A program made the position numbers and the translations under genes. A model generated the notes under the pieces. The model had not been told where the DNA came from. It saw only the letters and a list, made by a program, of their open reading frames with translations, and did not search any database. A stretch of 64,000 bases of DNA from Amoebophrya sp. A120 (Eukaryota; Protista; Dinoflagellata): contig CAJINV010000002.1 of the NCBI GenBank assembly GCA_905178155.1, positions 6,056,476-6,120,475 of the forward strand, in the 5' to 3' direction. This document shows positions 14,671 to 55,625 of this stretch, piece by piece (positions within the stretch are counted from its first letter, which is position 1; every line of letters begins with the position of its first letter).

Positions 14671-14826
14671 TTCATCATTCCCCCAAATCGCAACGCAGTC
14701 GCTTCTTTCATATATTTGCTGCTCCTTCTCGTCCGTAGATGCGAACACTTGAAGTCGTATTGCGCATAAAATGAAAATGAAAAATATGCGTTCGGACAAA
14801 AATAAAAAGTCGCTCTCTTGTTCAAT

Positions 14827-17800
14827 CTATGTTCCGCCGTAATTCCTTGCGACCTTACTGCTGCGAACATTTGCGCTGGAAAAACGCTGAGCCCCAGAAC
14901 TACTTCTGGCCTCCATCTCACCACCAAACGACGAGCTTCTCGCTCCATCGCTTTCAAGCGTAGCAGAACTACTCTCTGTCCCACCTACCAAAGATACTAT
15001 CCTGTTTCGCGGTAGTCCTCGCTGCTCATCGTCTGTTCGTCGCACAGCGGGCCCGCCACCCCCTTTTATTTGTGGTCTACGGTTATAATTTTCAAAACGT
15101 CTAAAACTGCTTTTCGCATCCAGAAATTCCACCACCGTATTGCGTGCCTCGTCATCTTCTACTTCGTTCACAGACGCCTGCCAAACCGTTCTCCCGCTTC
15201 CCTCGGCTGTGGTCCGTAATATCTTCTTTCCTTTATTAACGTTCCTCCCCTCCAGACTCCCCGGCTTTAATCTTCCAAACTGCTCAACATCCGACATTAC
15301 GCTGCTGCTACTGGAGCGCTGGTCCACCAACACAGCTCCGGTCTCGCTACCTTCGCTGAGACTGCTGGTTGAAGAACTTCCCTCGGTTTCGTCCTCCCCC
15401 TCCTCCTCACTGGAACTAGAAGATGTTTGGTCCGCACTTTCCTTCACCTTCACCAAGTTCGTGTTGCGCTGTCGCACCATGACGGCCGCCGTCGCTGCGC
15501 ACATGCTCAGAATCGTGAAAAAAATCGCCACGGGGATGCTGCGCGCCGTCTTCGAGCAGCGCACGCTGTCGTTGGGACCGGACAGCTTCCCGTCGTCGCA
15601 CGTGACGCGCAGGCTGACCGCCGCAAACCAGTTGTTCGGGTCCTCGGCCTCGCGCGGGTACAGACACCGCAGCGAGCACGAGTCCTCATGCCGCAGAATG
15701 CTGGTTTTTTGTTTCGAAGTGTAGTTGTAGCCGCACGTCCCCGCGTGCAGCGATTCCACGTCCGCGCCGGTCCTCCGCGACAGGAATTCCCCAATGTTGC
15801 AGTCGTTCGGGAGCCTGCACCGCAGCAAATTTTGACTCCCGTCGTACTCGGGGAGATACCCCACCTTGCAGACGCAGTGGAGCCGGTTGAAGGACTCAAA
15901 CGTGTAGTGGTTCGAGCCGTACACCGAACTCCGGATCTCGGCGTTTTCGGGACACGGGGTGCACTCGTAATAGTTAGTTGATGTTCCGCTGGCAGTACTT
16001 GAGGACCTTGTCACATAGCTGCGCGGAGAAAACGGAGAGGTGGACCTCATACGGGCTGTGTTCGATGCTGTTCCTGGTATGTTGTGCCTCTGCTGTTCGA
16101 GATGTTGAAGTGTTGCCAGCGTGTTTGCATCCGTGATCTGCTTTAAGTAATGGCTGGTGGAAGCCAAGCACCGGCAGCTTCTCTCGTCTTGCCCCTTCGT
16201 CGCCCGTATGGTTTACTTATCAAAGTGCACAACTCGATGTCGGTCCCCCGTCGTTGTTGCGAGGCGTGGTGCAATCGAAGCCGTAAAAACTTCAGCAGAA
16301 CAAGCACAAGTGTTGCCTCTCCATAAAAAATCAAATCCACACACAACGCTGCTGATTGGTCCACGAGGAAGCTGCCAACTTGCCAAGACCAAAAAGGAAA
16401 ATGAGTAAATTTTCGAAAATTAGCGATACTTTCGCGCTAAGAAATGACGGGAAAAAAATGAAAAAGCTCCCTCTCGCGTTTGAGCCCGGTATCCGCAGCT
16501 TGACCAGTTGCCAAGATCAAAAAGAAAATTTGGCGCATTTTGAAAAATTTGCGATACTTTCGCGCTGCAAAATGACACGAAAAAAACGAAAAAGCTGCTT
16601 TTCGCGTTTGTGGGCCGGTTCGTACGCTGACCTGTGGCAAAAATATTGGCCGGAATAAATGCAAGGCAGTGCTGAAGAGTGAGAGGAGGCAACACGATCT
16701 GAGGGTAGCGCAGCAATATTTGCTTCTGGTGCTGCAGTTGGACTACTTTCGCATCAAAAACTACACTATGTGGGGACCTCGACCTCCACAGGAGTTGTGC
16801 ACTCTCATATCGCAGCGCAGCATCGAAGAGGTAGGGCGCGGTCGTGACGTACGGAGGCATTTCCATAGTGTGGTACCGTAGAGGGCCGTTCTGTGCCGCC
16901 CACACGTTCAAGTTCAGCCAAGTCACGGTGTTGTTCGGACACGCATAACAGAGATTCGTGTCCTCCCCGGATGTAGGTGATGCCGTGGTAGTTACTGCTA
17001 TCCCTGTAGCAGCTCTGACGGCAGCAGGAGATGGCGAGTAAAACGTGTTTTTACACACGCACGATGTGAAATATGACGCTCTCAGGCGTTCTCACACTCT
17101 CAACTGTTAAATGCAATAATACTAATGGCAAAAGTAAAAACAAAGGGGAAGAAGATTGCGCCTTTTGCATATACAGGTTTGACGCAGATTCTAATGCTAT
17201 CCATCGCGTCGAGATGCACTTGTCATGCGAAGTAGCAGCTTGCGCTTGGTAATGTAGAAGTGACAACTTTGCATCTCATGTAACTGTAGTTGAGAATGTA
17301 AAGTTTAACAATCCCATATGAAACTCGTCAAGGGGTCAGACCAGGAACCGTACGCGCACGGGAGGCAGAGGTCGACGGAGGGGGTGGAGGAGCTGTTGGC
17401 TGTTGAATCGACGACGGACGAGGAAGTTGCAGTTGCAGGAGCACCAGATCCTGCTGTCATGTTCGTTGTGTTGATATCGTGCGGTAGAAGCAGGTCTTTC
17501 GCCGAGTAGGAATAGGGATAAGCAGAACTGTTTTTCCCGTTCGTCGCTAGTACCGCTGTAGTTCCAGTCGCTGTACCTGTTGTACCTCCTCCGACAAAAG
17601 TGTAGTCTTGCGGCAACTCCGCTAGAGAATTCACGTACTCGTGATATACCCCCCTCGCCAGATTTTCTTGGATTTGCCGCAGAAACGGGTTTGTCGTGCC
17701 CGGGACTTTGTTTGGTCCAGAAGCAACACCAGCAACAACGCTACTTTTCGCCCCGTTTAAACGCACGGTGAAAGTTGTTGCCGAAGTGGAGGTATTGTTG

Positions 17801-23123: not shown

Positions 23124-26100
23124 TTATGATAAATCCTGCTGCGCCTCCCGCTCTTCCTCCGGGTAGAAATACGCAAATGCCAAGAACAGCAGCGCCGCAC
23201 AGAACACGAGCTTGGCAGCGTCAGACAGGTTTTTCAAGTCCCCCTATCAAGTGTAAAAGTGTTTGGGTCTGGAAGAATGCAACCTGTCGCGCTAAATCTG
23301 AAGCATGCAAAAATCTGCGCTGCATGATTACCAGAAGTCGCCCAGTTTTGACCAAGTCGGGAGGGAGTTTCTCATGCAGGATAGGCATGAGAGAGATCGC
23401 GCAGAGTCTGTCATGCTAGGTCCTGCATTCCAGACCTCATGGGTCATGGAAAAGCTGCATGACAAGTCGCGCACTCTTCCAGACCCAGACATTTTTACAT
23501 TTGATACCCCCATCCGGGCCTCCATACCAGTGTCCGTAATGTACCATTTGTGATTCGCCATGGCAATGCGCGTTAGCCACGCGTACAACATCCCCGTGCT
23601 CTGCGCCTCCTGCCGCGCGTTCTGCGCGGCCTCACTGGCAACGTCGCGGTCCTGGCGGAAGTTCCCCGCAACGGGCAGGACTTGCGGGGACCCGGGGAGA
23701 TTTTCCATCAGAATCAGGTCGCCCGGCTGGAAATGGGCCGTGTCCTCCTGCTCGCTGTTGTAATGCTCGAAGGGATCTCTACCGATGTAGAAATCAAAAT
23801 CGGCCTCGTGGTTCTTCACACTAGAAGTACGAAAAGAAGAAGAAGAACTGCTTGCTGTGGAAACTACAGCTTCGTCTCTGCTCGTCTTCGTTTGCGGCTC
23901 AAGAACCTTTCCTGACGACTTCTGGTTGAGCGCCGGCGGGTCTCGTACTCCCACCTTTGCGGTGACTTTTCCCTCATCCTCGTTAATTTGATTCACCGCT
24001 TGCTTGACTGCAGCGACATCAAGGGACTCTTTCTTCGTAGCAGCTCGGCCAGCCCGAGCATTCTTGCTCTTGTTCTTCTTCTTCCTTTTTTCGGCTGCGG
24101 CGGCGAAGGGATTTCTGACAACAGCTTTCTGCTTCTTGGCTGGCTTACTGTTATGCTGTGCAAAACGTCTTGCAGCGCACACGTCTGAACAAGTTCTTGA
24201 CGATGGCAAAACAAATGACAGGATGAATTATTTCTTTGTTCACTTTCGATATCGAATAGTACAAATTTTGATTCATCGGAAAAGTCGCATAGCATTTTTT
24301 TGACGGTGCGATAGTACTTTTGCAACTCATACTTGTCGTACCCCCGGTCTTGTTCGGGAGCTCTGGCCGGCACCCTCGCGTCTTTATCTATATCATTTCC
24401 AAGTGGCGCATTGCAAATACTGTCTCGGTATTTATTGTCTTGCTCCGCCCGCTGTTTTTCCTTCTCAGACAGGGGCGCTGCGACCTGTTTACTGCCTTTG
24501 TCCTTGTTGTTCTGTCGCGCTGCTGGGGAGTTGTGTTTTGTTCCTTGCTGGCCGTTCTGTGGACTGCCTGCGCCGGATGCAGTTGTACTACTGGATCCAG
24601 CGGTACTGGATGTTTCCTTGTGATTCGTACGCCTTGTTGTACCCCTAGCCTTTCTTTGTTTCCGGTCATATGACGCGATTAGCTCATCCCGGTCAAAGAA
24701 ATCCAAAAACCAGGAAGCCAGCCAGCCATACTTCTTGAGGTTTTCCGCTCTCCTTTTCTCCCGGTCTTCCTTCACCCAGGTCCGGCGCTCTTCCTCCTTT
24801 TCCGCATGCAGCTCCTCGGCCATGCTCGCCATTGGACTGACGCGGAGACAGTACCGCGTGTACAGGCCGTCGTGGTAGTAGTACACCGGAGCGATTTCCG
24901 GACCAACGGTGGCATTTTTCTCCGCCACGCGCTCCAGGTATTCGTGAATCCGCATGCCATTCCGTTTCCGCACCCCTTCCCTCCGCATCATTTCGCTTCG
25001 TTTCTGCGAATTCCCTTCTTCGCGAAGTAGTTCCGGGCGGCTGTATAGGTCGAACGCGTTATGAAATGTGGGAGCAGACGCGGTAGCAGCCATAGTCGCC
25101 GCTCGCATAGGAGAACTCGTGTTGTCTACTTTCTCATCCTCTATGCTCTTCGTCAAAGTTTCCTCATCGGCCTCGAACACCAGAGGCTTCACGGGCATCA
25201 CCTGTTGGCAGTATCTCAGCACCTGCATCTGCAAAAAAATCCGCCGGTTGCTCGGCGGCGGAAATGCGTAGGGAGGTTTGATCAGGTGCGCTTGTTCTTG
25301 CGGACCGCCGTTGGTGGAGGTGGTGGACGATTCAGTACTAGTAGTACTTTTCATCTTCTTCCACATAGCCCATTCGCTTTCCGCAACCTCTTCGTCGGAT
25401 TCGTAATAGCCCCAGGTCCACTGCAGGCTGTACTCTTGGAGAATGTTCGGCCTGGTATACTGCGATCCGGTGATTTGCCCCGGGTGCGGGTACTGCAGGG
25501 TGGGGAACACCAGCGATTCGTAGTCTGCCCAGCGGAACTTTTGCTTCACGAAGTTTGCAAAGGCGTCGAAAAACTTCTGACTGATGACATCCATCTTCAA
25601 GTTTTTCCGTTTGAATGTCTTTTCCCGGCGGTCCGGCGCCGTCTTCCGGTGCCCGCGCAGCCGGCTTGTCATGTTTTTTTCGTCCAGCACCAAACTGGGC
25701 GGGCTGCGCACGTGGTACAGCTGAAGGAGGGAAGGCGGGATAGTACTAGTACCTTCATCGTTCTTCTTTTGCTCGTCAGCTGCTGCGCTCTTCTTTTGTG
25801 CCTTCTTGTTTTCATCCGGTTTTCCGGAGGGAGAGGGCGTTTCAGGTGGGAACAGCGCACTGTCGTCTTCCAGCAAGTAGGGGTCGCAATCCTGGTTGGT
25901 CGTCCGCATCTGCCACCGAGCTAGATCGTCGTGGTGCTTGCTGACATGATTAATTTCCTGTCGCTGCATCGCATTGGTCAACGCCATCAAATGCCGAAAT
26001 TTGTCGTTTATCATCCCGTTATCATGGACTTTTCCCTGGTAGAAGACGGTGCTTGCCGGGATGGCCTCCGCCGTCCAGTTCGCGCGCTGCAGGTTTTTAC

Positions 26101-29100
26101 TCAGCAACACGTGGTCCGTAGTGGAATCTTCATCATCTTGTTCTTCCGGTCGAACATAGTTGTTGTAAGCTGGTTGCTCCTGCTCCTCTTCATCATCGTA
26201 CTCATCTGGCTCGCGCGTGAACACGTTCCGCAGGCGCCTCGCCTCCATTCGGGAGATGTTTCGGGCAACGTCCCGGGCAATCTTTTTCACGCGGGCCAGC
26301 TCGGTGGCCGGCAGTCCGGTCATGTCGATCAGTTCCGCTGTAGTATACGCTTCCATCTTCGTGGCCAGGTCGTCCCCAATGTTCCGCACATACGTCAGAT
26401 TTGACATTCGCAGTTGCGCCGCGATGAAGTATCAAATGTAAAAATGTCTGGGTCTGGAAGAATACAAACTTGTGATGCGCATTTCAAGACACAGAAAAAT
26501 CTCTCATGCATAGTTAGCAAAAGCTGCCCAGTTTCTGCCACCATAATGGGGGATTTGTCATGCGGATTCGGCATTGCGAAAGTTTCTCGAAGCCTGTGAT
26601 GCTAGAGCTCCCATGCCAGACCTTCTGTGTCATGCAAAAACAGCATGACTCTTCCAGATTCAGACATTTTTGCATTTCATATGAAGTTCTTCCGGGCGAT
26701 TTCCTGTGCGGTCACGTTGTATTCCGGGTACTGAATGGTTCCATTGACTTTCTTATCCTGTGCAAAAGTATCGCACTCGTACTAATTGCAGATATGCATG
26801 ACAAATCCAACTTTCTACCTGAAATAGCATGACAAATTGCATTTTTGTTCTTGGGAAAATTTGTAATGCAGTTTATACTTGTACGATAGTTTTGCAATGC
26901 ATATTTCTTTAAGCCCCGGGATGAAAGCGATTGCGATAACTCAATGTCGTCAGCGACGATAAGTTCATCTTCGCGAGTAGTTTCGTTGTGGAACAAATTA
27001 GTTGTCGCCACATTCATTTTCTGCGACACGGCGATATCAAGTTGATGACCCGTCTCGTTGTTGTTCAAAGCAGGACTAGAAGTTGCACTCACGTGCTTTT
27101 TCTGCTGGGACCACATATTCAGCAGGGAAGGTCTTGCGCTTTCGACCGCCTCTCGCACCGCAGCCTTTCTGTTTCGCGAAGTGTTATTGGCAATGTTTGA
27201 CAGCGCCAAAATCCATTCTGTGGTGCTAAGAGGCTGGGCGTCTTTCGGAGTTCCATCGGCTTCCGAGTATCGCCCCCAGCGATCCTCTATGGATTGCAAA
27301 AATGTCTGGGTCTGGAAGATTGCGAGATTTGTCATGCTTGCCTGGCATGACAAAAAAGTTTGCGATGCGTGTTCGAGAAGAGACCCTCTTGCCTGTCATG
27401 CAAAAACGCAGTTTCTCATGCGAACACAGCAACACAAAATAGCGCAGATATTTGTATTTCTTATGCTTGGCTGTGCATTACAGAGCAGTCACTATTCCCA
27501 ACATAGCATTACAAGTTTCCAGACCCAGACACTTTTACATTTCATATCCTCATCCTGCTCGTCCTCATCGAGCTTACCGGAAAGGTCCAGCAGAGAGGAG
27601 TATGCTCGCACCAGACTGCTGTCCAGTCCTTTCATTAAATTTTCCTCTTCCCCCGGCATGCTTCTCGGCAGAAACAAAAACTGCTCGGGCATGTGCCTGC
27701 GCATCTCCTCACTGCTTTCCCAGAAGTCAAAGGGCAGCCCCAGAACGGTCGAAGCTTCCTGGCGCCACAGCATGTACTGGGTGTGATTCACGTGCACGCC
27801 CTTGATGGTGAAAGGCGGGGTGCGAATCCAGGTGCTTGACCTTTTATTTCTCACCGTGGTCGAGGGAGTTGTTCGGGGGCCAGATGAATTTGTGATCTTG
27901 TTCCTTGCGGCTGACGACGTAATTTCATTTACAGGAGCTGCGGTTCGTCCGCTTGAAGCTGGAACCACGAGGGGTCCTCGGGACATCACGGTCGGACCGT
28001 CAGCAGCTCCATCCGCTACTTCATCCACGGGTACTGGCAGTTGCGGCTGCAGCTCAGCATTACCCTCCTGGTCCTTCGTTTGGTTCATCTTTGGTACTAG
28101 TGCGTCGTGCGCGCCAGGACGAACATCATGATCTTCAGCACTGTGGCCACCGGATGAAAACTGTTGAGCATTTTCCTGAGGTGTCGTCGTGGCCGCGCCC
28201 GGAGACATAGCAGCGCGAATGTGTGCCCTGAGTTCCTCGGTATACGAGGTATCGTTCAATGAAGGAGCAGGAAGTGACGTTCGCAAGAATGCGCCCCCTT
28301 CGACTACATTCGGTTGAGATAAATGCTCGTCGCTGTTGTTCTCCGGTACAGCTACTGCCGGCGCTGGCAACAGTCGCGGATCATGTTGATCCTTTACAAC
28401 TTCCCCGCTCTTGTCAAAAATCTTCGTGTTCCGCAGAATTTCGCCCCCACCGTCGCTCGTCCCGGAGGTTCTTTTCGTCCTAGTTGTAGTCCCCGATGTA
28501 GTTGAAAGTGATTTGTTCTTCACCGGATAAATGGGCACAATTTTCACACCGTACAAGTTCCGCCCATATTTCTTCACGGCGAGCGGCGTGTGGTAGTAGA
28601 TCAGCACCTGGGACAGCAAGAATTGGTGCTTCCGCTGCAATTCCTTCTCTTGCAGCTCGCGCGTGACCAACTTCGTGTTGTTCAGAAGATTGAGCGCGAT
28701 GCGTTTCTCGATTTGCCTTTTGTTCTTATCAAATGCAAAAGTGTCTGGGTCTGGAAGTAAGAGTCATGCTGTTTTTGCATGACACAGAAGGTCTGGGATG
28801 GAAGCTCTAGCATCACAGGTTTCGAGAAGCGTTCGTAATGCCGAATCCGCATGACAAATCCCTGACTTTGGTGACAGAAAGTGGGCAACTTTTGCTGCCT
28901 ATGCATGGGAGATTTTTCTGTGTTCTGAAATGCGCATCACAAGTTTGTATTCTTCCAGACCCAGACATTTTTGCACTTGATAGTTCTGCTTTTTCTGCAA
29001 GTCGAGCTCGAAGTAAATCATGTTTTTCCCTTGCTGCTTTTCCAGTGCGGAGGCTTTTTTGTGTCTCTGGTTCTTCACGGTCAGTTTCGGGAAATCCTTG

Positions 29101-32100
29101 ACCTGAAAGTCGTTAAGCGGCACCAAAACGTACTTGTCGAGCGTTTTTCCCTTGTGCTCAATCATCGTGCGAATCACCTGCGTATCCTCATGCGTTTCGT
29201 GGAAGGCGGGAAAGAGAATCTCCACGTCCAGGGTGGTGTTGCGGAGGAACTCCGCGTTCGGTTTCAATAATTTGTTTTTGTTTCTACTAGTAGAAGTACC
29301 CGCATGTTGACGCTTTTTGTTGTTGCCGCTCAACACCTGGTCGCTCTTGTGCCTGCCAGAGCTCGTCGGTGAAGCTGAAGCACCATCCAGATGGTCCATC
29401 CCAGGAAGCGTGGACGTGCCGTTACTCCACGTTTGGTTTCTGTACGCCTATCCAGGAAGAAACACCCATCAACATCCGATTTGTCATGCGAAACACGTAT
29501 CAACTCATGTGTTTGTCATGCAAAAAATGGATGTGGATGGGTTTTTTTCTGCGGATAACTCCACAAACACACCGATGACCGACTCAATCACCGTGCCTTG
29601 CAGGAGAACAACTTCCCTATTCAGCCGGTCCACGATCTCCAGGTCAAGTGCGGGCGTCGTTTTGTTCGTGTAGGGGACCGGAAACGCGGCCTCCATTTCC
29701 CGGGTGGAAGGGTCATTTTTGTATATTATGACCTGCTTAACAAGCGACGTTACAATCTCAAAACGTTACGAATAGAGTTTGAAAATCTGTGATGCAAGAA
29801 GTGCACGATCTAGTCAAGGCACACAGGACTGCGCATGAGAAGCTCCGAAGTTGTCCCGCACCGCTCTGCAATCTGCCGAAATTTGTGTTGAAGAAAGTGG
29901 AATGGTCTGCGAGTCTGTCATGCTCATTATGCAAGACAAATCCCAGATTCTATTGCAACGTGTGAGATTGTAACGTTTGAGCAGGTCATATATACGTCTC
30001 GTTCCTTCTTCTGTTCCTGCTTGGACCGAAACTTCCGCAGCTTGCCCCCAATGTTTGCAGATGGAGTTGTTGTCCCGCCCGGCGATGATTTTTTTGACTG
30101 GTGTCGCTGCTCCCTTTTTTGCTGAATAAGTTCGTGACGACCTTGCTCTCCTTCTTCACTAGTGCCACCAGTCGTAGAAGTAGAAACAGCACTTCTACCA
30201 GAAGATGCATCCGCTTGACCCGCTTGTTCCTGTGCTGTTGCACGTAATAGAGTTGCGCGACCAACACCTGGTGCTCCAGCACCTCCAGCGAAAACATTTT
30301 TTCCTACTTGGTTCAGGTTCGAGAAAAAGTTGAAATTGCCGTTCGTAACGTACTATCAAATGTAAAAATGTCTGGGTCTGGAAACTTGTGATGCTGGGTG
30401 GCGTCTCATGATGAGGCCACACATCCACATGCTGGCTCAGCATGACAAGTTTCTGAGCTTCTAGGTGTTGCCTATTCTGCATGACAAACTGCGTTTCTGC
30501 ATCACAGAAAAGTGGAGCCCTTGGGTAACGTGCATGACAGATTTAAGAGTCATGCCAGACAAGCATGACAAACATGAATTCTTCCAGACCCAGACACTTT
30601 TACAGTTGATACGTACAGCAGCTTCCGCATCACGGGCACGCGGTCCAGTTTCGGACGGTAGCCCAGCTGGATGTGCGCGTTGAGGTGGGAGACTTGCTTC
30701 TTGTCGAACGACGTCTGCCGGAGGTCGCCGTTAAGGTAAAATTCGATACCGTTTTGGGCCATAACTGCTTCTGCTGAATGAGGTGTTTGCTGTTCTTCTG
30801 GTGAAGTAGATGCACCAGTATTTTTCTTTCCCACCTCCGCGCCGGGTGGACCTCCACTTTTGGTCGCTTTATTTCCACCTGGTTCTTGTGGTTGTTGAAC
30901 TGGTAGTACAACTTCATGCTCCTTCACATCGGAGAGGTGGTTCTTTGCTGACGTGGGGGTAGGACTCGTGGTAATGGTCGGACTTGTTCTTGTTTCTGGC
31001 GAGTTACTATGTTCGCCAGCCCCGCGAGCGGAAGTCGTTACTGTAGTGACGTTTTGGTCTTTGTCCTGCAGATGATCATGCTCCTTTTTGTTTTCCGCCG
31101 TGTCCTCCTGAGGCTTGGGAGCAGCTGCTGGCATCACTTCATTTTCTACCAGAGTGATGTTGGGTTGTTGCGTGCTATCGGAAAAATCACCAAAGCTTTC
31201 CTCTTGTTGAACAGCTTGAGGAGCTAATCCGACCTCGGAATCAGTCGCAGCGGACGCTGGAGTAGATGAAGTAGAAGTACTCGTCGACGTGGCACTACCT
31301 CCAACATTCTCCTGCATAATCCTGCCTTCCTTCCCCGCTGGATCCTTGCCACTCGACGCCATAGAAGTACTGGCACCAAGCGGCAGAATCGAGGTGGTTG
31401 TGGTTGTTGTCTTGAAGTTAGAGTGGAGAGGCGGCTCGGAATCTATGTCAGCTCCGGCGTCAAGGGAAGGACGAGCCTCTACTTTGTGGTCGTCTCCTGT
31501 TCTTCCCCGTCTCTCGGCTTGTTTGTCTGGCTGAATATTATTTCCCCCGGGTGCAACCTGTGCACGGCCACCCGTGCGAGCGTCTGTCTCTAGTACCTCA
31601 TCAGGATCGACACGTTTTATTTCTTTTTCAGGACTAGGATGATCGGTTGTCAGATTATAGCTGATAAACAGCTGCCGGGAAAATTTCTTCTCCGGTAAAA
31701 ACAAGTCTTGATTGACTTCTCTGTCAAACGACAAACCGCGACGGCGAGGACCATTTCGAAGGCGTTTAATAGCTCCTCCAGCTGTAAGAACCTCTCTACT
31801 AGTACTACCTCCGGCCGAAGTTCTAGTCTTGGTGATCATCGACGTCCTGTGATTTTTGCTTACGTCACCACCGTGGTCCTCGTCGTGGCTCGCCCCTCCT
31901 CTGTTTTGATATTCATCAAGCGCCGCCGATGGAAGATGAAGAAGAGGCTCTACGAGTACTTCCTGGTGGTCCGCTAGACTTTGATGATCTTCTTCGTGAG
32001 AATTTTCAACTACATCCGGCACGAGTTCCCGCGCCTCGAGTATTCTCATATTTCGGCTCAAGGTTTCGAAGCAGGCGTTTTCCCGGGTTATTTTCTGGTA

Positions 32101-39214: not shown

Positions 39215-39530
39215 GTATCTGCCGTTGTACTAGGTCGGTACCACAACGACTACCACAACGACTGCATTAAAGACGCCCAAATTATGGCGATGAGTTCGAA
39301 AGTACGAACTCGATCGGCGGTTGAATGTAATCGATTCTGCAGCTCGTGTAGACTTCTAATATCTAAGCTTATTGCTTATGCTTACTGGTGAGATGAGCGC
39401 GATGCTAATTAGTCATTTTATCTCATGATGTTTTAGAAACGACCGCAGTGGTGATGCATAGAGAGTTGGAGTCGCCTCCTCATGGCGATGGCGAAAAGTT
39501 TGTTTACTTTCTTCCCAAAAGCAGAACCAT

Positions 39531-42500
39531 TCATAGCGTTTTGACCGGTCTTGCAGACACATGATCACTAAGTAGAAGATCTCTAAAAGGATAAAAGTAC
39601 GCACTTGCATCACGAATGTTGATGTCTCTTCGCTCGCCAAAGCCATCGACTTCCTCATCCTGCTGAGGTGGGACAACGTCGTTGATAGCGTGGATCCGGG
39701 GTAGTATCCCGCCCCGCCACCCAGAGAAAGTTACTCCCAGCACACAGCAACCACACAGCGCGTTACAGCTGTTGTCAAGGCAGTCTCCGAGAAGCATGCC
39801 TGAGACATCCGTTCCGGGAAGGTGTTTATTGTGGCCAAAAGTGTCGCTAGTACTAGTCGCACAAATCATTCTAACGCGGCCTCTGGCAGATTACTGTCTT
39901 CAGCTTCACAGCTGACGTGATCCTCTTTTTCCAGAAAACTTTCATACAAAAACTGCATTTTTCTGCTTCTTGTAAGTCGTTTGCATAGTAGACACACGGC
40001 AACTCTGTACTCCTAGTACGCTCCTACTTTTGATAGGAACTTGCGTGGTGCGCAGCGGCGGCGAGGGTGGCCGGGTTGCAGGTCTGGTACGCCACGGCCC
40101 CGGCGATGCAGCAGCTCGCGCCGCAACAACACGCGTCACACAGCAGTGGTAGTGCGACGGTGCTACACCTGCAGCAGCCCGGGGCCCTTGGCTCCCCGCC
40201 GGCGTCGCTGGTACAGAGGGCCCAGGAAGAGCTTACCGGGCCGGCGAGACAGCAGCAACATTTCGCATCCGCTACTGAAAAAAAATCGGCCGCGGTGTCG
40301 GGTCGGACGCAAGTACTGGCACAAATAAAGGGGCCGCAATACAAGTAGACAAGCGTGGTTAGGGCGCAGTCGCACGTGCGCAAACACGGGTGGAGGCACC
40401 ATTCCCGAAGGCATGGCGCGACTTTGTCCACCGCGAAACGAGTAGCGCGGCTCAAACTTCGTGCACTTCCCCCAAGAACATCGATCACCAGCAGTTCCAG
40501 TGCCTAGGAACGGAGTGGCTTCTGAAGGCTGGTAATCTGGGTGCGTCTCACTTTCCTCTCCGCCGGACGAGGATCCGCTGCTCTCCGTATTTCGACCTGC
40601 AGGCTGACCAGCCCGATCTCGCACAAGCCTAATGTCCTCTTCGGAGTAGCCGAGCGCTTCCAGAACGCCTGGGTTGCAGCAGGGAACCACACGTCGGGCC
40701 GTATGCTGGTGCCACATAGCGGTCTCCTTCAGCCTACCGTAAAACCGGAGGAGCAAGTATGATAATTCACATCACCAACATGACCTCCCACTCTTGTCCT
40801 TTGCAAAGGTGCGTTGCCGTTCACGCAATGAAGTACAGCATAATATAATGTACGTTGGAATTCATCAAAAAAATGCTGCGTGAACCACTTGTACTGCGCA
40901 TGACAAATAACAACATATTGATGGTGCTAGTGATGCCGATTCTGGCTGGGATAGCAGCGCCTCCACAGTGATTGGCGGGCCGGATGACATCAGAGGGCTG
41001 CGCGTCGCGTCCTCCACATCGTTCTCTTCGTTGGATGATGAGGATGAACTTGATGCAAGTTCATCTCCTTCGCCCGAATCGGACCCTCCGTCATCTTCTG
41101 TCGGTCGCCGCCCGTGTTCCGGTCCAGAGGACGGCTTTTGCAACAAATCACCCTGTAGTCGTGCGGAATCTGTTGATGTTGATGAACTAGAGGCGACCAC
41201 GGCCCCGATACTCGTGGTTTTTTTATGTTTGCTCCTTCTATATTCGCGGTCTAAAAAGTGTCCGCTGATATGCTCACCGGTCTTCTGAAAATGCCTTCGT
41301 CGCCGTTTCTTTTGGCGTTTGATCACTTGGGCAAGACTTTTTTCCTCAGCAGGCGTGCTGGTGCCGGCGCCAGATTTACAGACGGTTTCAAATTCTGGGT
41401 CTTGTCGTTTCATCAGTTCGAGCTCCGTGGTGGCGAGACGTCTCTCTTGCGACGGAGACGAATAGTTCATGGCACGACGAGGATAGTTCCCTCTACACTT
41501 GCGGTGTCTTCGGCCGTTGTAACCTCCGAGTTTCTTCGGCTTGAAAGTGGCCGAACCACGTGAACTCGTGTAGGTGCAGCTCTTCGGGGTTCTTGCGGAA
41601 GAAATCTCGAACAATTCCTCGAAAAAAATCCCCAATGCGTGTTCCAGCCCGTCGCGGGCCCGCACGATGTCCAGTGCTGTGTGGAGGCGCATGTCCACTA
41701 CAGGGGGCACCCGGGCACTAAAACTCTCATGCTGTTGTGTGCGAGCCTGCTCGGGCCCCGGGGCCGCGCTGGTCGCGGATCTTTTCCCGCGCGGCCCGTC
41801 TTTTCGTCGTAGACCAACACCCGAAGTGCTGCTGTCGTGCGGGCGCGCTCCCGCACTTGCACTCCCACTTGCAACGATATTCACAATTTGCGCACGAACA
41901 TCGTGGAGCTCGTAGGAAGCACTTTCGACATAGCTCTTCACGTGATTCCAGAGCTGCTTGCGCTCCGCTGGTGTAAGTATTTCTAGATTCTGTTCTAGCA
42001 TGCGTCTAGGTCTACTTCCACCTGCCGTGCGCCGGGTGCTCTGGGTTGCAGATCGGTCGTGGTCTCCCTTCAAGAACAAAGAAAGCAACTCATCGACAGC
42101 TTCCATCGTGATTCCATCGTAGCACACGTACCGCGGGCAAAGGCTGGTTTGGCAGTAGCACGCCTGTGCGATGGGTTGGCACGCGTCGGCCACGTCGAGA
42201 GGAAAAAAGTGGAGGCCAGGAGCCTCTTGCTGCTGCGGCGGCCCGGAAACCACGTCGTGTTTTTCTTTTGGCATTTTACCGCCTTCTGAGACGAAGCTTC
42301 GGCCGCAGATTCTGCGGTCTACTTTACCATCCTTCTCCTGCCGCCCTTCGACGTGTTCTTCGTCTCCGCGGGAGAACAGAAACCCACCACTGCGTGCTGG
42401 AGGTCTAGTCTGCAAATAATCACCGTGGAGCTTGCGCTTAGGAAGACCCTCACGGTCGTGCTCAACAACCGGGTCTCCAGCCTGTTGCTCGTCTTGCCCC

Positions 42501-44750: not shown

Positions 44751-47700
44751 TCACGCCGAATTCGGCGATTCGGTGTCGACGTGCTCCGGTCCCTTGGTCT
44801 TGACCTTCATGTTGTCCCCGTGTCCATCGTTCGTCGCCGTGTTCACGCCACTAGTCCCGGCGGTTTGTTTTCTATCGTGTGCAAAGACGTACCCACCCGA
44901 TACTTGCAAATGCCATGTGTAGATCTGCATGCCTAAGAAAAATGTTTCCTATGCGCAGCCCCATCAGGATGCCCATTTTCCAGTCGTGGTGTTTTGGAAC
45001 TTGACATGATGCTCTGATCAACACGATGTTGAGAGCGTCGATTTTTATCTAATGTGGCTTCACTACCCATGCACGACTACACCGCGAGCGCAAACCTGTC
45101 ATGCGCCCCAAGCAGAACGGCAGCAGATCTACTCGTCCCATCTTGACTATCCTCGTGGGGACGTTTTCACGCACGATATTCTCCAACAGCGTTGGTGCGC
45201 CGGCGGTGGCCAGACACTTCGTTTTCGGCTTGTTCCAGCGGTTCCAGCTCGTTCAGTTGCCGAAAAGTGTTCTTCTCCACCTCGTCCTCTTCTTCTTCTT
45301 CTCTCAGCAAATCGGACTGCGACGTCGTGGTGGACTTCCTCATTTTCCCCGCCATGGGATCTGGTATCGCAAACTCGTCCTCTGGCGGTAGACCACTCGG
45401 TGCCACGTCACGGTCCTCTTTGTGGCCACCACCAGCGAGATGATTGATGTCCTTCTTGTAAGAAGAATCTCGTCCACCGGAAGCTGTTGCAACTACATCA
45501 CGGCCAATGTTCTCATTGGTTCCACCTCCTGCTACCGGCGAAGAAGGTCCTGCTACTGCGTGATGCAATTGATCACCCTCTTGAGCTGGGTCCCCGTTGA
45601 CGACCATCAACTTCGTCGGAGAGATGGGAGGCGGAGTAGCGGAAGAAGATCTCGGTAGTTGTCCATGAAGGCCTTGCTCGATTTCTTCAGAATTCCGAAG
45701 GTGGTCGTGCTGCTTCTCGGTAATAGTGAGCTCGTCGTGCTGGTTGGCCACGGTCGTGCTCCCGGTGGTTCTACTGGTGGTAAAAGTAGTGGCGACTGTA
45801 CTCCTACTGGTTCCTCCGCGCCGATTGTCTGGAATGTTGGATGCTGGCACGGAAACAGGTGCACCAGCATTCAGTTTCTTCATCTGTGCGGTTGACACCG
45901 CGGTCGTGTGGTCCTTTTCTGCTCCAGGTGCAGCGGGCTCTGTTGTTCGTTTTCCCGATGGAGGGACAGCAATCGTTGATGGAGTGCCATCTTGCTCTTC
46001 TCGTTTCCGGAACTCCACCTCGCTCACCACTACCGGAGCGGTTTTTCTGTTTGCTCCATCAAGGAAGTGCTCGTCCGGCCGTGTTGCTGACGAACTACTA
46101 GACTTACTCGGCCGTCCTGGTACAGACACCCGTAGTGCGGTGTGGGTGTCCGATTGTACTGCGGTTGCAGCGGTGCGCCCTTTTTCCTCCACCTCGTTCC
46201 TGTGCTGCGGACGTGCTGCGCGGAGATCCGGATCCGGACTCGTTACCTTTGTTGTGCCATCGGTTTCAATGTTGGACGTGGGTGCGAGATCATTGCTGGC
46301 AGGTTCAGCATCTCCGTCGGAAGCAGATGTCTTGCAGTCAATCCCGCTCGCTTCCAATTCCAGCAAGGACATTCTGAATTTTCCAGTGATTTTTCCTCCC
46401 TTGCAATAAGTTGGCTTTGTCCTCGTGATTGTGCCGCCGGTCGGCGTCTTCTCTTCCCCGGATTTACTGAGCCAACCTCCCCAGCCCACCAATTTCCCTA
46501 CTGTGGTTAGTAGCGAGTCGCCCATGCCTTGTCTGGTCCAAAACGGTTCCGGAAAATCCTGGAGCAACGGCTGGCGTGTGTTCGCCAAATCCACGTCTAG
46601 CGCGTCGGGCTGCTTCTCGACCTCGAGCCCCTCGGCGCCGTCCAACGGGAACAAGTTGAATAGAAAAAACGCAAGAGACTGACAGTTGAGCTGCGGCTTA
46701 GAAGAAAACATAGAGGGAGTCTCCACGTAGTCGTTTCCGCTTTTGAATGGTCCGTAAAACGCTGCGGCAATAGCAACGAGAACGTCGGACCACGTCGCAG
46801 TTGGAACAAAGTTGCGTATTATATTGTACAGGGTATCTGCTCTTGCTCTAATGAAAATCCCGCCTTCCGGATCGAGCACTTCCTGCGCGTTGTAAGGGGT
46901 GCACCAATCCGGATACTGGAGAGCAGCTCGTAGCTCCGCGGGCGCTTGCCTTAGGGCGCGCGTGCTGGTCTCCCCTGTTTGCGATTTGTCGTCCAGATCC
47001 CGAATTGCAAGGTCGCAGCTGAACCCGCTTGCAGAGTATCCGGCATACAGGATGAGCTCATAGTCTTTTGTTGTTGCTCGTCCCCACAAACCAGTTTGCG
47101 AAGATGACGTCAGCAAAAAGGCGAATCTGATGAAGTGATGCTCTGCTGTATCCGATCCAACCTTGTTCAGTTGCAGTTGATGGGCTTGCACAGCTATATC
47201 GACGCCAGGATTCACTGTCCACGTCGTTGCCGTAGCACTAGTAGCAGGATCGGGCGCACCTTGGACGTAGGGTATCGTTGTCAGTTTAACGCTGAACGGC
47301 TCGACTACGGTCACGGCGCAGGTAGCGGCTGGCCTGAGGGTTACGGCCCCGAGACGTCCGAGGTACGGGCCGTCGGTACACGTAGTCTCTAAACAGGGGA
47401 GCAGTCGGTTAGAATCCGGGGGAAACGCTGGAGTGCTGCGCACGCACATATGTTCCATTTCATCGAGGCTTGTTCTTTGTTGAGGTGAAGATATTTTACT
47501 TCTGGTTGATGCGATGCCGTCCTTGTGCTGCTGCCGCTGGTTGATCGTCATCCGCATCTGCTTTATAGCTCGAAACCACTGTTGTTCTTCGAGATCCTTC
47601 GCCTCGGCATTCCCACCATCCGGAACAATGTGACTCTTCAAAAGGGTTACGCACATAGGAGAGATCTGAGCGAGTTTGTACTGACCCTCGACAAATCCTT

Positions 47701-49834
47701 TTCTATCACTATCGTGTTTTTCCGGGAAGATGTGGGCCAAAAACCGTTTTCGCTTCATTATGTCAGGATCCGCGGTAGGATTGACCTTGCATTCATTAGC
47801 GTCTCTGTTTTCCACTTTTCCTTTTGCTACTGTGTCCGACAACCAGCTCAAACTGTTCGCCCAGACCGTGCCGGCGTCGGGCTCGGTCACGGTACAGAGG
47901 TACAATTGCCGGGGAAGACCTGCATCTACCAAGTTGTTGTAACTAGTATATTTTTTGATCTCTTCAGGACCCGGCCCAGCATAACCACCAATGCCGCCGA
48001 CGTTCACCTTGACATGATCGGGTTCCACAGGTTCCGCTGCATGGCCACCGAAAACGGGAGCAAGGGCACCGAAAATCATCTGCAAGAAACTCGATTCCAG
48101 AGAGTCGACCAAGCCGAGCAACATCTTCCCAACCAGAGTAGTGGGAGCAGGTGGGTGAACCTGGCGGCGCAACATCGGCTATGGAAACCTCAGTTGGAAG
48201 CTATTCAGGGTAGAAGAGATTTGTCATAACACATCGAGTCAAAAAACCGTTGCCTCGTCCTGCTCTTGTCTGCGCCTTCCCATGACGAATTCGCTTACAC
48301 AATTGGTCCACCGCTCGCGTGAATCCCTGAAGCTACGTGCTGGCGTTGAGCCTGACACATTTTTCACGTTCCCAGAAGGCTGCAGCAGCAGCACTGGGTC
48401 AGAAGTAGAAAACGCCTTAGAATACAAAAGCCAAAGCCTCAAGTTGCTGCGCGCCCTCCATAAGGGAGGCTGTCACAGTCTAAGCTGTGCTCTTCTTGGA
48501 TGTACAGGCGAATAAATTTCTTCCACATTGAAAGTTTTTCTTGGTTTCTTGAGGTTGCCATACGGACGACTTCTTCTTGTAGAGTACCAGAGCGGTGGAA
48601 GACGAAGAACTAGAGGTGCTGGTGGTGGTCGTTGTAGTCGTGCTGTCGTATGCATTGCAAACACGAATATATATGCCTGGGTTCTGAAGGACGAATTACA
48701 TTTGCATGTACATTGGCGCTGTGCCATGTATGAGGAGGAGCCCCCAGTGATGGGCCCTGTTTTTGTCCTCCGACAGTAAAGCCAGAAAGAAACCACGTAC
48801 GTTAGTACTTCTCGACCTTGACCACGGGTCATGGGAAAACCTCCTTTTTAAAGCGTAAAGGCAATCGAAAGCACCCCTATAATGACGCCCGCGTATTCTT
48901 TTGAGATTCAGACCCAGCCACATCCATTTGCAATGAATACGCTGCCAGTTACTACTGCGTCCAAAGCGGGAGCTGAGATGATGAGTGCTCTTGATGAAGA
49001 TTCCGAGTCGTCCACAACTACCGGTAGAGTACTCCGTTTCTCGCCCGAAGTTGCAACGCCATGTTGTACAGGGGTTCGACTAGTACCATCGTTCCTTGCA
49101 GTAGTTCTCGAGTGATCGTTCTCCATGCTGCTGGAGTCCTTCCCTTCGTTCTCGAGTGTTGTAGTAGCTTCTGTCCTCGGATCATTCTGGTGAAGACCGG
49201 AATCATGTGTAGTTGTAGTTCCCACTGGCTGTAGTGAACCATCATTCCTTCCTCCTGCATTCTTTGCCGCAACGGCAACAGCTGCACTGGCATCAACCTC
49301 GTCCGCCTCGACGTAACTTTCGCGTTCCCGGCCGCCCCCTGGCGCGTGATTTTTCTGTTGCAGCGGTTCATGAGATGAAGTCGCAGTCGCAGTAGAACGA
49401 GTTACATGTTGATGCTCATCTACATCTGGAGCTTGATGATCGTGGTCTGCGACAGCAGAAGACGCTGACACCGAATCGTCCGCTTCTGCGCCGATCGTCC
49501 TCCTGGAAGAAGAGGAGGAAAGGCTACTGCTGCCGGACGCCGAGTCTTGGTGAATCGCACGAACCATGAGTAGCTGCGGTAAGTAGTTGTGATAGCCCAA
49601 GTCGTCGCTCATCCCTCCTCGTGAAGCGAAAAACCAGCTGGCGGTCACCGGGTACCCAGGCGTCGCCCTCCACCACAATGTTGATGAAAAGTCTGTCACT
49701 ATCAAGAAGCCGCATTGAAGAGCGAGGAGGACGATGAAGCAACAACGACTGATCGATGAAAGCGGAAGAATTATAAACAGCGTGTGCTTTTTCACCATGA
49801 AGCGATGCATCGGGAGAGGACTTTTCACCGACAT
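44751..49834 (-). CDS. Hypothetical secreted or membrane-anchored protein (4 exons)
   Basis: ORFs 48908-49915 and 45167-48175, an 81-nt exon and a terminal exon all join in frame through three introners. N-terminal hydrophobic segment. No family recognised. Confidence 0.7.
44873..45178. mobile_element. Introner, DR ttttc/ttctc
   Basis: tatcgtgtgcaaagacgtacccac / gtggggacgttttcacgcacgata. Excision gives AVGEQTAG. Confidence 0.85.
48180..48562. mobile_element. Older introner, DRs diverged
   Basis: tatggaaacctca / tgaggttgccata. Removing 388 nt gives YKKKSSVLRRQ. Confidence 0.75.
48649..48939. mobile_element. Older introner with B-like ends, DRs diverged
   Basis: tatgcattgcaaa / tttgcaatgaata. 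Removing 296 nt gives VTGSGTTTT. Confidence 0.75.
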
Positions 49835-51201: not shown

Positions 51202-54200
51202 TCAGCTGCAAGAAGATGTTGACTGCGCATTGAGCTCCTTCACATATGTGTCCAGGAACGCATCAAAATCGACCGTCCTTGTTGCCGTGTCATTTTCTCT
51301 TCTACCGTCTTCTCCTGCTCGATTCAGCGTAGAAGCTTCGTTTCCGTCCAAAAGTCGCAAAATGCTGTCCATCTTCCCATGCACCGACCCGGTTTCCATG
51401 AATTTCTTCAACCGCTCGCCGTTTTCCAAGCGTGCGAACCCACTGTTGCGCCAAACGTGACAGGCAAGCACCTTGTTCAACAGATAGCAGTAGTAGCTGC
51501 CGCCGTAGTGTACCAAGTGCTCAAATTTGGACAACGGCATGGGCGTCAGAAGGTTTCGCAGGGTTCGCGGTGCTTGCAGTGTGTTGTCGTTCTCCAATGC
51601 CTCGTCGGTCAAGACTAACTCGAATTTCGGAGCTCTACAGGAATTCTCGTCTGCTTGTTCACTTCCATTACTCGTCCTTCCCGCACCTGCACCTCCGATA
51701 ATTCTTCGCAGCGCCACGTGCTTTCCCAGATCCGGGAGGGAATCCAAAAGTCCAGCGGAAAGTTTTTCCCGCATGTCTTCCACGCTCGAAATCTCGGTGC
51801 CGCAGTCGTAAAATTTCTGGTCTACCAACGCAAAAAGCAGCTGCTGACACGCTTCGAGGAAGGGAAAAGCGGTCTCTGTACTGATCTCGGAAATGTGAAT
51901 GTCCTGTGCGTCACGCGGGATAGTAGTTTGACCAGGCTGTGGTCCACCTCCAGCACCTTCTCCCTGTCCGCTCCACTTTCGCATGACCGCTTCGTCCAGC
52001 ACAAAGTACTCAAATAGGTGGCTCGGGAACTCGACAAAGTCCACCGCGCCGCGCGTTCCCGACAGCGATTGCAGCTGCGTCTTACTCAGCAGCGAGTGCA
52101 CGCAGTGGCCCACCTCGTGGAAAAACGTGATCGCGGCGAGTCTGCTGATGTTTTTCTCCGGGATGCTGCACACGAGGGCGGTTTTCGGAATCACATACGC
52201 GGTTTTAGAAGTAGTATTCGCCGCGGCAGTCTGCTCTTCTTGATGCTGCACGACATGCGGGGAAGTTGTGCTGGCGTCCTCTTCGGACAAAGTCAAAGCT
52301 ACTTCTCTGGACCCTTGCAAGGTAAACTGTGCGGATTGGACGCGTTTCTCGGGCCTCGGTAATGCGTCGATGTACAGAATGCCGATAAGGGACGACGACC
52401 CCTCCTCGTCTGTTTCGCTTTTAGTCGCCTCCCTTGCAACTGTCGTCCCCTCGCGTCGCAGTTCGAATTTTCGCACACTGGCGTGCCACGTCTCGTTTTT
52501 GTGCGGTGTGACCTCGGTGAAGTTGACGTGCAGAAATTTCTGCAAAATCAAGTTCACGCCGGAGATCAAAGAGTCGTAGGTCGTGGTCGATGTGATGTTG
52601 TAAGCCGCCTTTTTTTTCTTGTTATCCACGGACGTTTTGCTCTTTTCCACGAAGTACGCAATGTCCCAGGGGTTTAAAGAAACGAAATCTGAATCTGAAT
52701 CTTTGATGTTCTGTGACCTTCCCTGCATTGCCATTTTCTCGGCGTATTTCATCTCCGCCAACTGCCGAAGCTCTTTCTTCAATCCCGGCAAAAGGGCAGC
52801 CCAGGCCTTCTCCAAAAACCGGGTCACGTTTGCGTTCGCGGTTGCGGCGGCGGAAGTTTGCGGACCGTGGTCATGTTCTTGGCGTGTAAGACCACCCTCT
52901 GCAGATTCATTCTTGCTGGATGAAATGGACAAGTCGGCACGAGCAGATGAAGAATTATTTTCCCCTTGTTCTCTGGAAGTCGTAGAATTACTAGCGAAGT
53001 TGAGAATCCCATCCCTCTGCGCGTACACGTTCCAGTTTTCGTAGTCCCGTAGTTGTGCCAGCCGGGTTCGCGTCAGCAGCAGTTCGACTAACGCGCGTTC
53101 GAGCTCCGGGTTCTCTTCTATGTGCACGACCTGAAAAATCTTCTCCCGGGCCTGTTCGATCGGACACGTTTTTAGCACCACATCCGCGAGGGCAGGATTC
53201 TCCCGCATGCGCTCGCCGCCCAGGTTGATTTCTCGGCCACCACCGGCATCTGAATTTTTTGCACTATTTTCTTCAGTAGTATTTCTTCCTCGGGAAAAGA
53301 AGCCGTACCTCTTCCCTGAGCCTGAAGTTGATGAATCCCGCTGCTCTAGGTAGGGTAGCAAGGCCCGGAAGTGGTTTCTGGAATCACGTCCTGGAGTCGC
53401 GCTCGTGGTTGGACGTAGTTGCTCTGCAGACGATGATGGGCTGGCGGCTGCTGCTGCTTGCTCCAGTCGCTTCTCGAGCTCCGCGTACGATATCCAGAAG
53501 TCCGACGAGTTCGAGTATGAAAATGAAAAAGGAAGAAACTACATAAGTATCTGTCCCGCACATCAAATCATCCAAAAAGGAAAAACGCACAACTTGGACT
53601 TACTTCTAATTGCTCCGAAAAACATTTTGATTTTACGGACGCAAACCATCTTGATTTTCATTTTACGGACGCATTCTTATGTAAATTATTCCCTTTTCCT
53701 AACCGCTGGCCATCCTGCGTTGCGGCACTGCTGTTACCGCTCTGCTGGTTTTGATTTGAGATTCCGCCGGCCAAACAGAAGGAAAGCTCCTGCTCCGTTT
53801 GCTGCAGCGCGAGACACTCCTCCTTTTTCTCCGGCGGCATGCCCACGCCCTCGTTGCCCATAGATTCGACCATGTGCCGAAAAACCGTGGCTTCCTCCAG
53901 TGACAGCGCCTCGTCGGAAGGACACGGCGGAGTGGAAGATGTCGGTCGCTCTGAAAGATCAAGATGACCAGCACCAGAATCACACTTGATGATGTCGTTC
54001 CTTTTCAACAAACGTAACTCGTGGTGCTTTTTCAAGATTTCGAACACCTCCTCATCCAAATTCACAACGGACATGTACTGCGCGATCAGGTTCACCGCGT
54101 CGTTCGCTGCGTCGTGCCACTTGCTGTCCGGCGGCGTTACATTCCGCGTCAGCTCCGCCGCCCTATGAGAGTGCATAAGTTCCGCTCCCCCTCCACCTCA

Positions 54201-55625
54201 TTTGGATGTTGGCATCCACAGCAACACAAGCTCTGGCTGGGCAAAGATCAACTCAAGATGCAGCTTGCCTCTGCATGACAAACTGACTACCGATTCTCGT
54301 GGTGTTTGGTATTTTGCATGACAAATGAGGATCAAGGGGGGCTGTGCACTCTCATACGCGTCCGCGATGTTGCACAAACTCGCTGACACGTTGTCCAGAG
54401 TGCGCAGAAGCGTTTTGGTACTCATCATCGGAGGGAGAGGCTGGCTGGCAGAAGATGAAGAGAGCGGAGGAGAATTCCTCTGATCTTGCTCTTGGCCCTG
54501 CCCCCGCGCTTGAATTCTATCCTCTTCTGTCGCTAAGTTTTGCTCTTGTAAAAATTCCGACGATGAAGCACGTTCAAACCAGGCCTGGTTCACGCGTTTC
54601 AATTCCTTCATTTCTTCATCCGCGAAATCCACCACTGCCTGCGCGAGCTTCGGGAAATCTGCCGGCCGCTGCAGCTCGGGAATATCGAGAAAATTGTTGT
54701 AGTTTCTGGTGTGAAGATGATACGGAGTCGTGAAGGTCTTGGCCTTGCTGTTGCTGTGCGCATGAGAACGAAGACCCGAGTGGCTTGCGATCGTCCCGTG
54801 CCTGTCCGCACTGTGCTGTTGCCCTCCGTGTTGACCCGAAGTGGAAGCGAAAAGACTGCGACCACCGGCGACCTCACTAAGCGGCAGACCCGTTTTGGGG
54901 CAAAGGCGAGAAGATCTTGTGCTACTTTCAGGCGCAGTTTCGTCGTTGTTCCCTCTGTTGTTAATTTCAGCCGCCCTTGAGGACGTCGTCCCCAGATTCG
55001 TAGACGTACTGCCGGAAAAAAAGTCCGTCACCCGGGCACGAATGTTACTCGCTATGGAAGCAGAGGAAGAAGAGGATGAGGACGATGAAGAGAAGGGTTA
55101 TCCAAAGCGCAAATGCATACATGTCCGAGTCTACTCCTGAAAGCGAATGCAAACATGTGCTGTAAATGATCCAGCACAATGCGGTTCGCTCTACCGAGGG
55201 CACCATGCCAAAATATCCAAGCACGTCTCTTTCGCAGGTATGTGTGTCATCTCAAGAGAACAGCGCATGCTGTAAGGATATCAGACCCAGATATGCACCA
55301 GCTTTACATTGCATAACGACCGTGGCACAACAACAGCTGCGCTACAGGTGGCAGCACGGACACCGACGCCCATCGACGTTCCCGCGACGCGGAACTGACG
55401 CCCAGAAGTGGTCGCGAAATTTTTTCGATGGCAAGAAACTGGAATAAAGGGGGACTTGGCTTGCGAGTCACCCGGCGTGAGGGCGTAATTACTGTCTCTC
55501 CTTCTTATCCTTCCAACGGCCGCAACCGCATTTTCCCCATCAAAAATTCGCTGGGCTGTTCGCACGCGGGCCGCGCGGTGCAGCAAAGCCGCGGACTTCC
55601 GAACGAGAAAGACTTCGCCACGCAT
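51202..55625 (-). CDS. MIPEP: Mitochondrial intermediate peptidase (peptidase M3A), 4 exons
   Basis: FFHEVGHCVHSLLSKT..SGTRGAVDFVEFPSHLFEYF, HLVHYGGSYYCYL and N-terminal LDNVSASLCNIADAAEL. Arg-rich transit-peptide-like first exon. Confidence 0.9.
53516..53701. mobile_element. Degenerate introner (right end reads TAG rather than TAT on the minus strand)
   Basis: tatgaaaatgaaaaagg versus (reverse complement) taggaaaagggaataa. Removing 191 nt links the frames (GQRYSSDFW). Confidence 0.6.
54164..54356. mobile_element. Introner family C, DR cgccc/cgcgt
   Basis: tatgagagtgca / tgcactctcata. Removing 198 nt gives NIADAAELTRN. Confidence 0.9.
55099..55315. mobile_element. Degenerate introner, DRs diverged
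   Basis: tatccaaag..tgcata versus (reverse complement) tatgcaatg..tgcata. Removing 222 nt gives PRSFSSSS. Confidence 0.65.

Follow-up and report, generated by a model that had tools for sequence, protein, structure and literature searches.

Non-canonical introns make up more than 60% of the introns in the marine parasite Amoebophrya sp. A120 and in A25 (Farhat et al. 2021, PMC7789003). The way in which they are spliced was left as an open question both in that work and in a 2024 review. In this work we focused on a stretch of 64,000 nucleotides (nt) of the A120 contig CAJINV010000002.1 (hereafter the window), in which a 769-residue query is 100% identical to an A120 protein, and on the transposon-like intron elements (introners) that interrupt its genes. 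All long frames of the window lie on the minus strand, as do all the introns described here. One of the genes codes for a Peptidase M3, likely the mitochondrial intermediate peptidase (51202..55625, 1270 residues), and contains three introner introns. The elements are already known; the fixed rule by which they are cut is real and apparently was not stated before, and the machinery behind it is inferred.

In the peptidase gene the largest exon (51205-53511) matches the Pfam family Peptidase_M3 (PF01432, E 5.9e-44) and is 100% identical to the 1270-residue A120 protein P0001. Two homologues carry the name 'intermediate peptidase', and the A25 orthologue is 37% identical. The arms of the elements start with TAT, followed by seven variable bases and a run of A at +12..+15, and 5-base-pair (bp) direct repeats flank them. 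Among the 14 elements crossed by contigs (see below), TAT is found in 13, the mirrored ATA in all 14, and the 5-bp repeats are perfect in 3 and decayed in 11. These are the published introners of A120, since arms, A-run and flanking repeats fit the text of Farhat et al. (PMC7789003), which gives TAT arms, seven variable bases and then As, a length of about 240 nt, and direct repeats of 3-5 nt overlapping the exon-intron borders. Sister copies occur within the window and at least 131 loci of the same families in a second assembly (JACKZZ01 contigs of a metagenome collection), with elements up to 94% identical to those of the window, and the elements are absent from the joined contigs, whose RNA status is a guess. 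The elements resemble miniature inverted-repeat transposable elements (MITEs) in their fixed-length, locus-specific target duplications, terminal inverted repeats (TIRs) and occurrence in both orientations. The text of Farhat et al. (PMC7789003) reports no transposase in A120; TIR-flanked A120 families with open reading frames are described in PMC12130899.

Contigs of four runs (X1-X4), from two samples of one study with X1-X3 as runs of one sample, were mapped on positions 39500-59400 and 11500-31400. The data are contigs and not raw reads, and their status as RNA is guessed, hence we call them transcript-like. The mapping listed 24 joints, of which 14 were used and 10 dropped, namely five in X6 within the element 54164-54356 and five in X1-X4 within elements 26754, 27288 and 30354; in all ten the short side, 20-28 letters long, fell within a repeated element. 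The retained joints cross 14 elements and cover 9 of the 11 junctions that a preliminary description of this sequence had listed for checking, 29444 and 58368 being uncrossed. Several joints carry the flag that the letters between are not known; at 48175, 48644 and 54158 the record lengths leave no space for additional letters, and the skip at 24147 equals the element plus 5 nt exactly, as the reading frame demands. In the six gene stretches crossed by contigs the long frame is on the minus strand in 6/6. The 14 joints, over both mapped stretches, include no ordinary repeat-free GT-AG intron, the sole GT-AG intron being itself an introner.

For each joint we determined k, the count of bases of the transcriptionally downstream repeat copy that are retained in the mRNA. 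Three joints pin the register exactly at k = 1, with no shared letter at the cut: those of the introns 11917..12144 (element 11921-12143, ends AT..CT; 11916 joined to 12145 in X1-X3), 24148..24332 (canonical GT..AG; 24147 to 24333 in X4) and 48176..48563 (GT..CG; 48175 to 48564 in X1). Two others allow 1 or 2 and exclude 0, without an exact pin: 48645..48940 (48644 to 48941, X1) and peptidase intron 3, 53512..53702 (53511 to 53703, X1 and X4). A k of 0 or 1 is allowed at 12331..12543 (junction 12330, element 12335-12542; 12329 to 12543), 16214..16810 (junction 16213, element 16218-16809; 16212 to 16810, X4) and 39823..40036 (junction 39822, element 39827-40035; 39821 to 40036, X4), and 0 to 2 at 44869..45179 (junction 44868, element 44873-45178; 44867 to 45179, X1 and X4). 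Peptidase intron 2 (54160..54357, junction 54159; 54158 to 54357 in X4, piece lengths in X1) allows 0 to 3, and peptidase intron 1 (55095..55316, junction 55094; 55092 to 55315, X1) allows -1 to 1. Three elements with perfect duplications permit any k: those of the introns 17068..17319 (weak arms; 17066 to 17319), 23241..23507 (of a young 250-270 nt family; 23239 to 23507) and 26426..26682 (26423 to 26681).

All 14 joints are fitted by k = 1, against 9/14 for k = 0, 7/14 for k = 2 and 3/14 for k = 5. In this register the 5' cut lies 1 nt upstream of TAT and the 3' cut 4 nt past ATA, so that the intron has the form N-TAT...ATA-NNNN, with the two repeat copies joined 4+1 as a chimera in the mRNA. 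This 1+4 register holds within the window, and we are highly confident of it. The spliced translation of the peptidase gene equals the annotated P0001, including an Asn that requires a k of 1 or 2; this agreement is not independent evidence, because the A120 annotation was built from assembled transcripts. Under the 1+4 register T is at +2 and A at +3 in 14/14 introns, and among 43 permitted placements every joint has exactly one that combines TA at +2,+3 with ATA at -7..-5; this sets the arm in the same frame as a GTA donor. Position +5 is G in 14/28 elements and C in 12/28. U2-type ends (GT-AG, GC-AG or AT-AC) are not the rule, GT..AG being present in 1/14, at 24147, and A, C, G and T are all seen at exon -1, intron +1 and intron -1. 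In intron 53512..53702 TAG replaces TAT at the 5' end of the element and the register is unchanged, so that position +4 is not essential.

The preliminary description had proposed that the mRNA keeps the whole upstream repeat copy and that the whole downstream copy belongs to the intron, with the 5' cut at or near the base of the stem, before TAT, and the 3' cut 5 nt past ATA. That register agrees with 9/14 joints and with the three showcase sites on which it was built, but five junctions of the 14 (11916, 24147, 48175, 48644 and 53511) retain the last base of the downstream copy, and there it is refuted unless the contigs are wrong. Both cuts are thus displaced by one base. The showcase sites (16213, 54159 and 55094) are blind to such a shift, because the fifth base is equal in both copies. 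Their translations were otherwise reproduced. Retaining the downstream copy at 16213-16217 creates an in-frame TAA (DAAQ and a stop instead of DAALR), and at 54159-54163 it turns IAD into IAG, with loss of the Asp of the LCxxAD motif beside which intron 2 lies. The latter argument is strong, because this position is D in 25/33 aligned M3 peptidase homologues and a gap in the other 8. At 55094 the readings are indeed RSFSS with the upstream and RPFSS with the downstream copy, but the proposed presequence cleavage context does not discriminate between them; this argument is weak, because both fit the R-x-F-S motif and the region is unconserved in the A25 orthologue. To rescue the 0/+5 cuts, RNA editing would have to make five changes of four different types, each landing on the downstream base, and strain differences are an unlikely rescue, since 0 other letters appear in the exon pieces listed. 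Furthermore, a TA start is found in no A120 class listed in Table S4 of Farhat et al. (PMC7789003). We therefore give the 0/+5 register hardly any credence. The preliminary description had named cDNA containing the downstream copy, or variable junction offsets, as results that would contradict it: the former was found for one base, and a single offset fits 14/14.

Its claim that distance is measured and that homology between the repeats is not used was borne out. Joints made by repeat homology, either through template switching of reverse transcriptase across the hairpin or through homology-guided crossover in the cell, deserve attention, as false junctions are known to arise from hairpins that lie between direct repeats (PMC13149111) and contigs are the only RNA evidence here. 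However, three joints have no shared letter, the repeats match at only 1/5 positions (chance level for each singly) at 11916, 39822 and 53511, a common register of any kind came out of 6 of 200,000 simulations with crossover at random within the repeats, and removal of the elements restores long frames and a conserved motif. We consider this origin of the joints very improbable. The guessed RNA label of X1-X4 would also allow excision at the DNA level, with joined contigs representing DNA, which appears equally remote: a single X6 contig runs through 39500-59400 without a break, and X6 shows no joint across an element (the window may itself derive from X6, which is then not independent), the contigs of X1 and X4 are patchy over genes, end between genes and differ between the samples, and the published introns were called from RNA-seq.

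The 11 imperfect repeat pairs match at 25/55 positions (p=0.0008 versus random 5-mers), and as a group are therefore decayed duplications. Perfect 5-bp duplications of varied sequence flank 84/97 copies of one family among the matches listed in JACKZZ01. The strand of these elements was assigned by a codon model, confidently for 125/185. Among 108 oriented elements with perfect repeats, GT-AG would be formed in only 2 and G at +1 in 24, and hence no proto-splice site is required. We rejected a choice of AG|G targets (2/108; antisense control 0), and also the carriage of flanks by reverse splicing, as sister copies have differing locus-specific duplications. Two close sisters, 26430-26681 and 28727-28982, sit in a single gene at a distance of 2.3 kb and point in opposite directions; pairing between them across exons is conceivable.

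A register independent of repeat identity is thus combined with 5-bp duplication of free sequence. As 1 + 4 equals the duplication, a fresh insertion is removed scar-free from any target, which would explain how elements land anywhere in a gene and are still removed cleanly. In either orientation the mirrored ends provide both signals, and after insertion the five repeat bases within the intron are free to drift. The M3 peptidase had no related locus in the metagenome contigs, and none of the at least 131 JACKZZ01 loci listed matched window exons in alignments of at least 300 bases; consequently there is no empty site that would tell which of the two copies had changed. At 53511 and 55094 the A25 orthologue has diverged too far for changes to be polarised. 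Between exonic and intronic copies, 3/5 changes at +1 and 3/7 at -1 are to G. Drift toward canonical ends was considered and set aside, the changes being too few to call. In intron 24148..24332 each of the two differences between the repeat copies brings in a canonical G, one at +1 and one at -1, and conversion of introners into GT-AG introns is possible. Arm pairing and repeat identity were not significantly correlated (rho 0.37, p 0.20). According to the text of PMC7789003, inverted plus direct repeats occur in 15% of canonical introns in A120 versus 1% in A25. The direction fits a target-supplied G+1 in A120 only; the size exceeds what the 2/108 young copies suggest, an excess that may stem from subsequent drift or from aligner preference.

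We infer that a relaxed U2/U5/U6 spliceosome anchored on TAT and ATA removes the introners at 1+4, and estimate the probability of this at about 55%. N-TAT(G/C) would serve as the donor, with TAT(G/C) at positions +2 to +5 and G+1 no longer needed. The 3' cut would be set by a fixed count from the end of ATA and not by AG, a putative branch point being one of the As of ATA (-7 or -5), as in the fused branch-acceptor of Giardia, and the hairpin would merely bring the intron ends together. The exactly pinned intron at 24147, GT..AG in the 1+4 register, supports this proposal, and the A invariant at -7 and -5 is a candidate branch adenosine. In Table S4 of PMC7789003, 9/9 listed A120 non-canonical classes begin with N-T and none with TA, 9/9 A25 classes begin with TT, and the A25 arms are given as TTA plus two purines; T+2 and A+3 would therefore hold in both strains. 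For A120, U2, U4, U5, U6 and 83/89 spliceosomal proteins have been reported.

The main competing explanation keeps the 1+4 register but lets structure determine it: a machinery that is either non-spliceosomal or separate would take its measure at the base of the terminal hairpin, in the way suggested for the nonconventional introns of euglenids. TAT:ATA pairing is predicted at about 0.6 or more in 10/14 introns with the arms folded alone, and the arms keep 12/14 matches where repeats have decayed to 2/5. Free first and last bases and the undetected U1 would also suit a non-spliceosomal route, and the euglenid pairing of +4..+6 with -8..-6 has a likewise asymmetric overhang (PMC4770533). On the other hand, predicted pairing is below 0.1 in 4/14 introns (elements 11921, 17072, 39827 and 53516), all in the same register and two with a shifted helix, one of these being intron 39823..40036, whose predicted helix is out of register with TAT/ATA; in full-length folds pairing is below 0.3 in six introns. 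That the poorly paired introns keep the register favours anchoring on the motifs over a ruler at the stem base, and makes doubtful the stem-based measurement of the preliminary description. No compensatory TAT/ATA change was seen, the sole change, TAG at 53516, breaking the pair, and the register agrees with the donor frame T+2 A+3 of both strains. We regard a structural ruler as possible, but as less probable than the motif-anchored spliceosome.

Several points weigh against the motif-anchored spliceosome. The contigs come from a single study, they may hide minor registers, and the tested genes are all on one strand. Terminal pairing is well predicted in the ten introns mentioned above, and TAT/ATA may owe their conservation to a role as transposase ends or to pairing. 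The branch pattern yUnAy is loosely followed, with T at -9 in 13/28. The classes of Table S4 (PMC7789003) represent about 20% of A120 and 31% of A25 introns and depend on aligner placement, and its CT-AC class could be strand-flipped GT-AG. Spliceosomes normally constrain the first-last base pair (PMC13326754), whereas first and last bases look free in the 108 oriented copies, with G..G plus A..C ends amounting to 21, about the composition expectation. Finally, U1 was undetected in A120. A stronger form of the proposal, to which we give slightly less than even odds, is that the spliceosome of Amoebophrya lacks U1 and demands no particular nucleotide at either intron end; the mirrored TAT and ATA would be its donor core and branch signal, and 1+4 matches the duplication length. 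If true, a single rule (T+2, A+3) shared by the two strains, with aligner ambiguity obscuring it, would underlie the 'unprecedented variety' of splice sites. The agreement of cut geometry with duplication length would then be what enabled tens of thousands of elements to enter coding exons at any position, whichever way they point.

Literature searches, which covered the text of Farhat et al. and openly accessible papers, later ones included, found no paper stating the 1+4 register. The text of Farhat et al. (PMC7789003) describes the borders as variable and unknown with no clear dinucleotide signature, whereas here one register fits 14/14. It does place the most common A120 repeats four bases upstream from the 5' end and at most two downstream of the 3' end, a sentence which may partly anticipate the 1+4 geometry. 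A single register replaces variable, unknown borders with a rule that can be checked genome-wide, tells where a branch point or circle should be sought, and gives gene finders a usable model. If the removal is spliceosomal, it is an extreme relaxation of splice sites; if not, a second lineage has a euglenid-like ruler.

As far as the accounts of other systems go, the closest are introners with TIRs and target site duplications (TSDs) in Symbiodinium, Florenciella and Aureococcus (Gozashti et al. 2022, PMC9860276), which are likewise cut inside the duplication with mRNA length kept and take their splice sites wholly or partly from the target. They use GT/GC and AG, whereas those of A120 need neither AG nor G+1 and show no target preference (2/108). 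Euglenid (PMC4770533, PMC11282704) and diplonemid (PMC12621601) nonconventional introns share an asymmetric, set-back end stem, direct repeats, the lack of GT-AG and a likely MITE origin. However, the euglenid stem is described at +4/-6 with CAG/CTG, pyrimidine|purine borders and excision as circles, in contrast to +2/-5, TAT/ATA and no border preference in A120. Measured against the euglenid pattern of CAG/CTG at +4..+6/-8..-6, the complementary motifs here are TAT/ATA at +2..+4 and -7..-5, and the pyrimidine|purine border is not found. The Giardia donor [G|C]TATGT (PMC10711314) resembles the N-TAT(G/C) of A120, and its fused branch-acceptor CT[A|G]ACACACAG shares a fixed short distance from an A motif to the 3' cut. 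Giardia keeps AG and is described without inverted or direct repeats, and a branch role of ATA in A120 is only a candidate. The introns of Fritillaria borealis (PMC13326754, PMC11282704) are also transposon-derived with TIR and TSD; they are reported to use a modified U2 spliceosome that keeps U1, with AG-AC and AG-AT as preferred ends, whereas the ends in A120 are free and U1 is undetected.

Three further introner introns are candidates with predicted borders. The one at 28723..28983 corresponds to the copy 28727, inverted relative to its sister 26430, and its support comes from the reading frame, which demands removal of the element plus 5 nt; the same holds at each of the 9 elements in the 2818-residue frame. 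For this large gene (from 22.5 to 33.7 kb in the window) protein searches returned no annotated version. The others, both on the list of the preliminary description and uncrossed by contigs, are 29445..29558 and 58369..58549, the latter in a CLC chloride channel gene with a long frame at 56355-61569. Other long frames belong to an arginase-family gene (35510-36523) and a RING-finger gene (40865-43396). A second, inner inverted repeat that starts with TAT about 20 nt inside the ends was seen in a 147-150 nt family (19318-19467, 26754-26903 and 36483-36629), and comparable inner TAT arms at 5615-5935 and 6222-6542. The 592-nt introner holds an internal tandem duplication at 16373-16610, of 2 x 110 nt with 79% identity and a spacing of 128.

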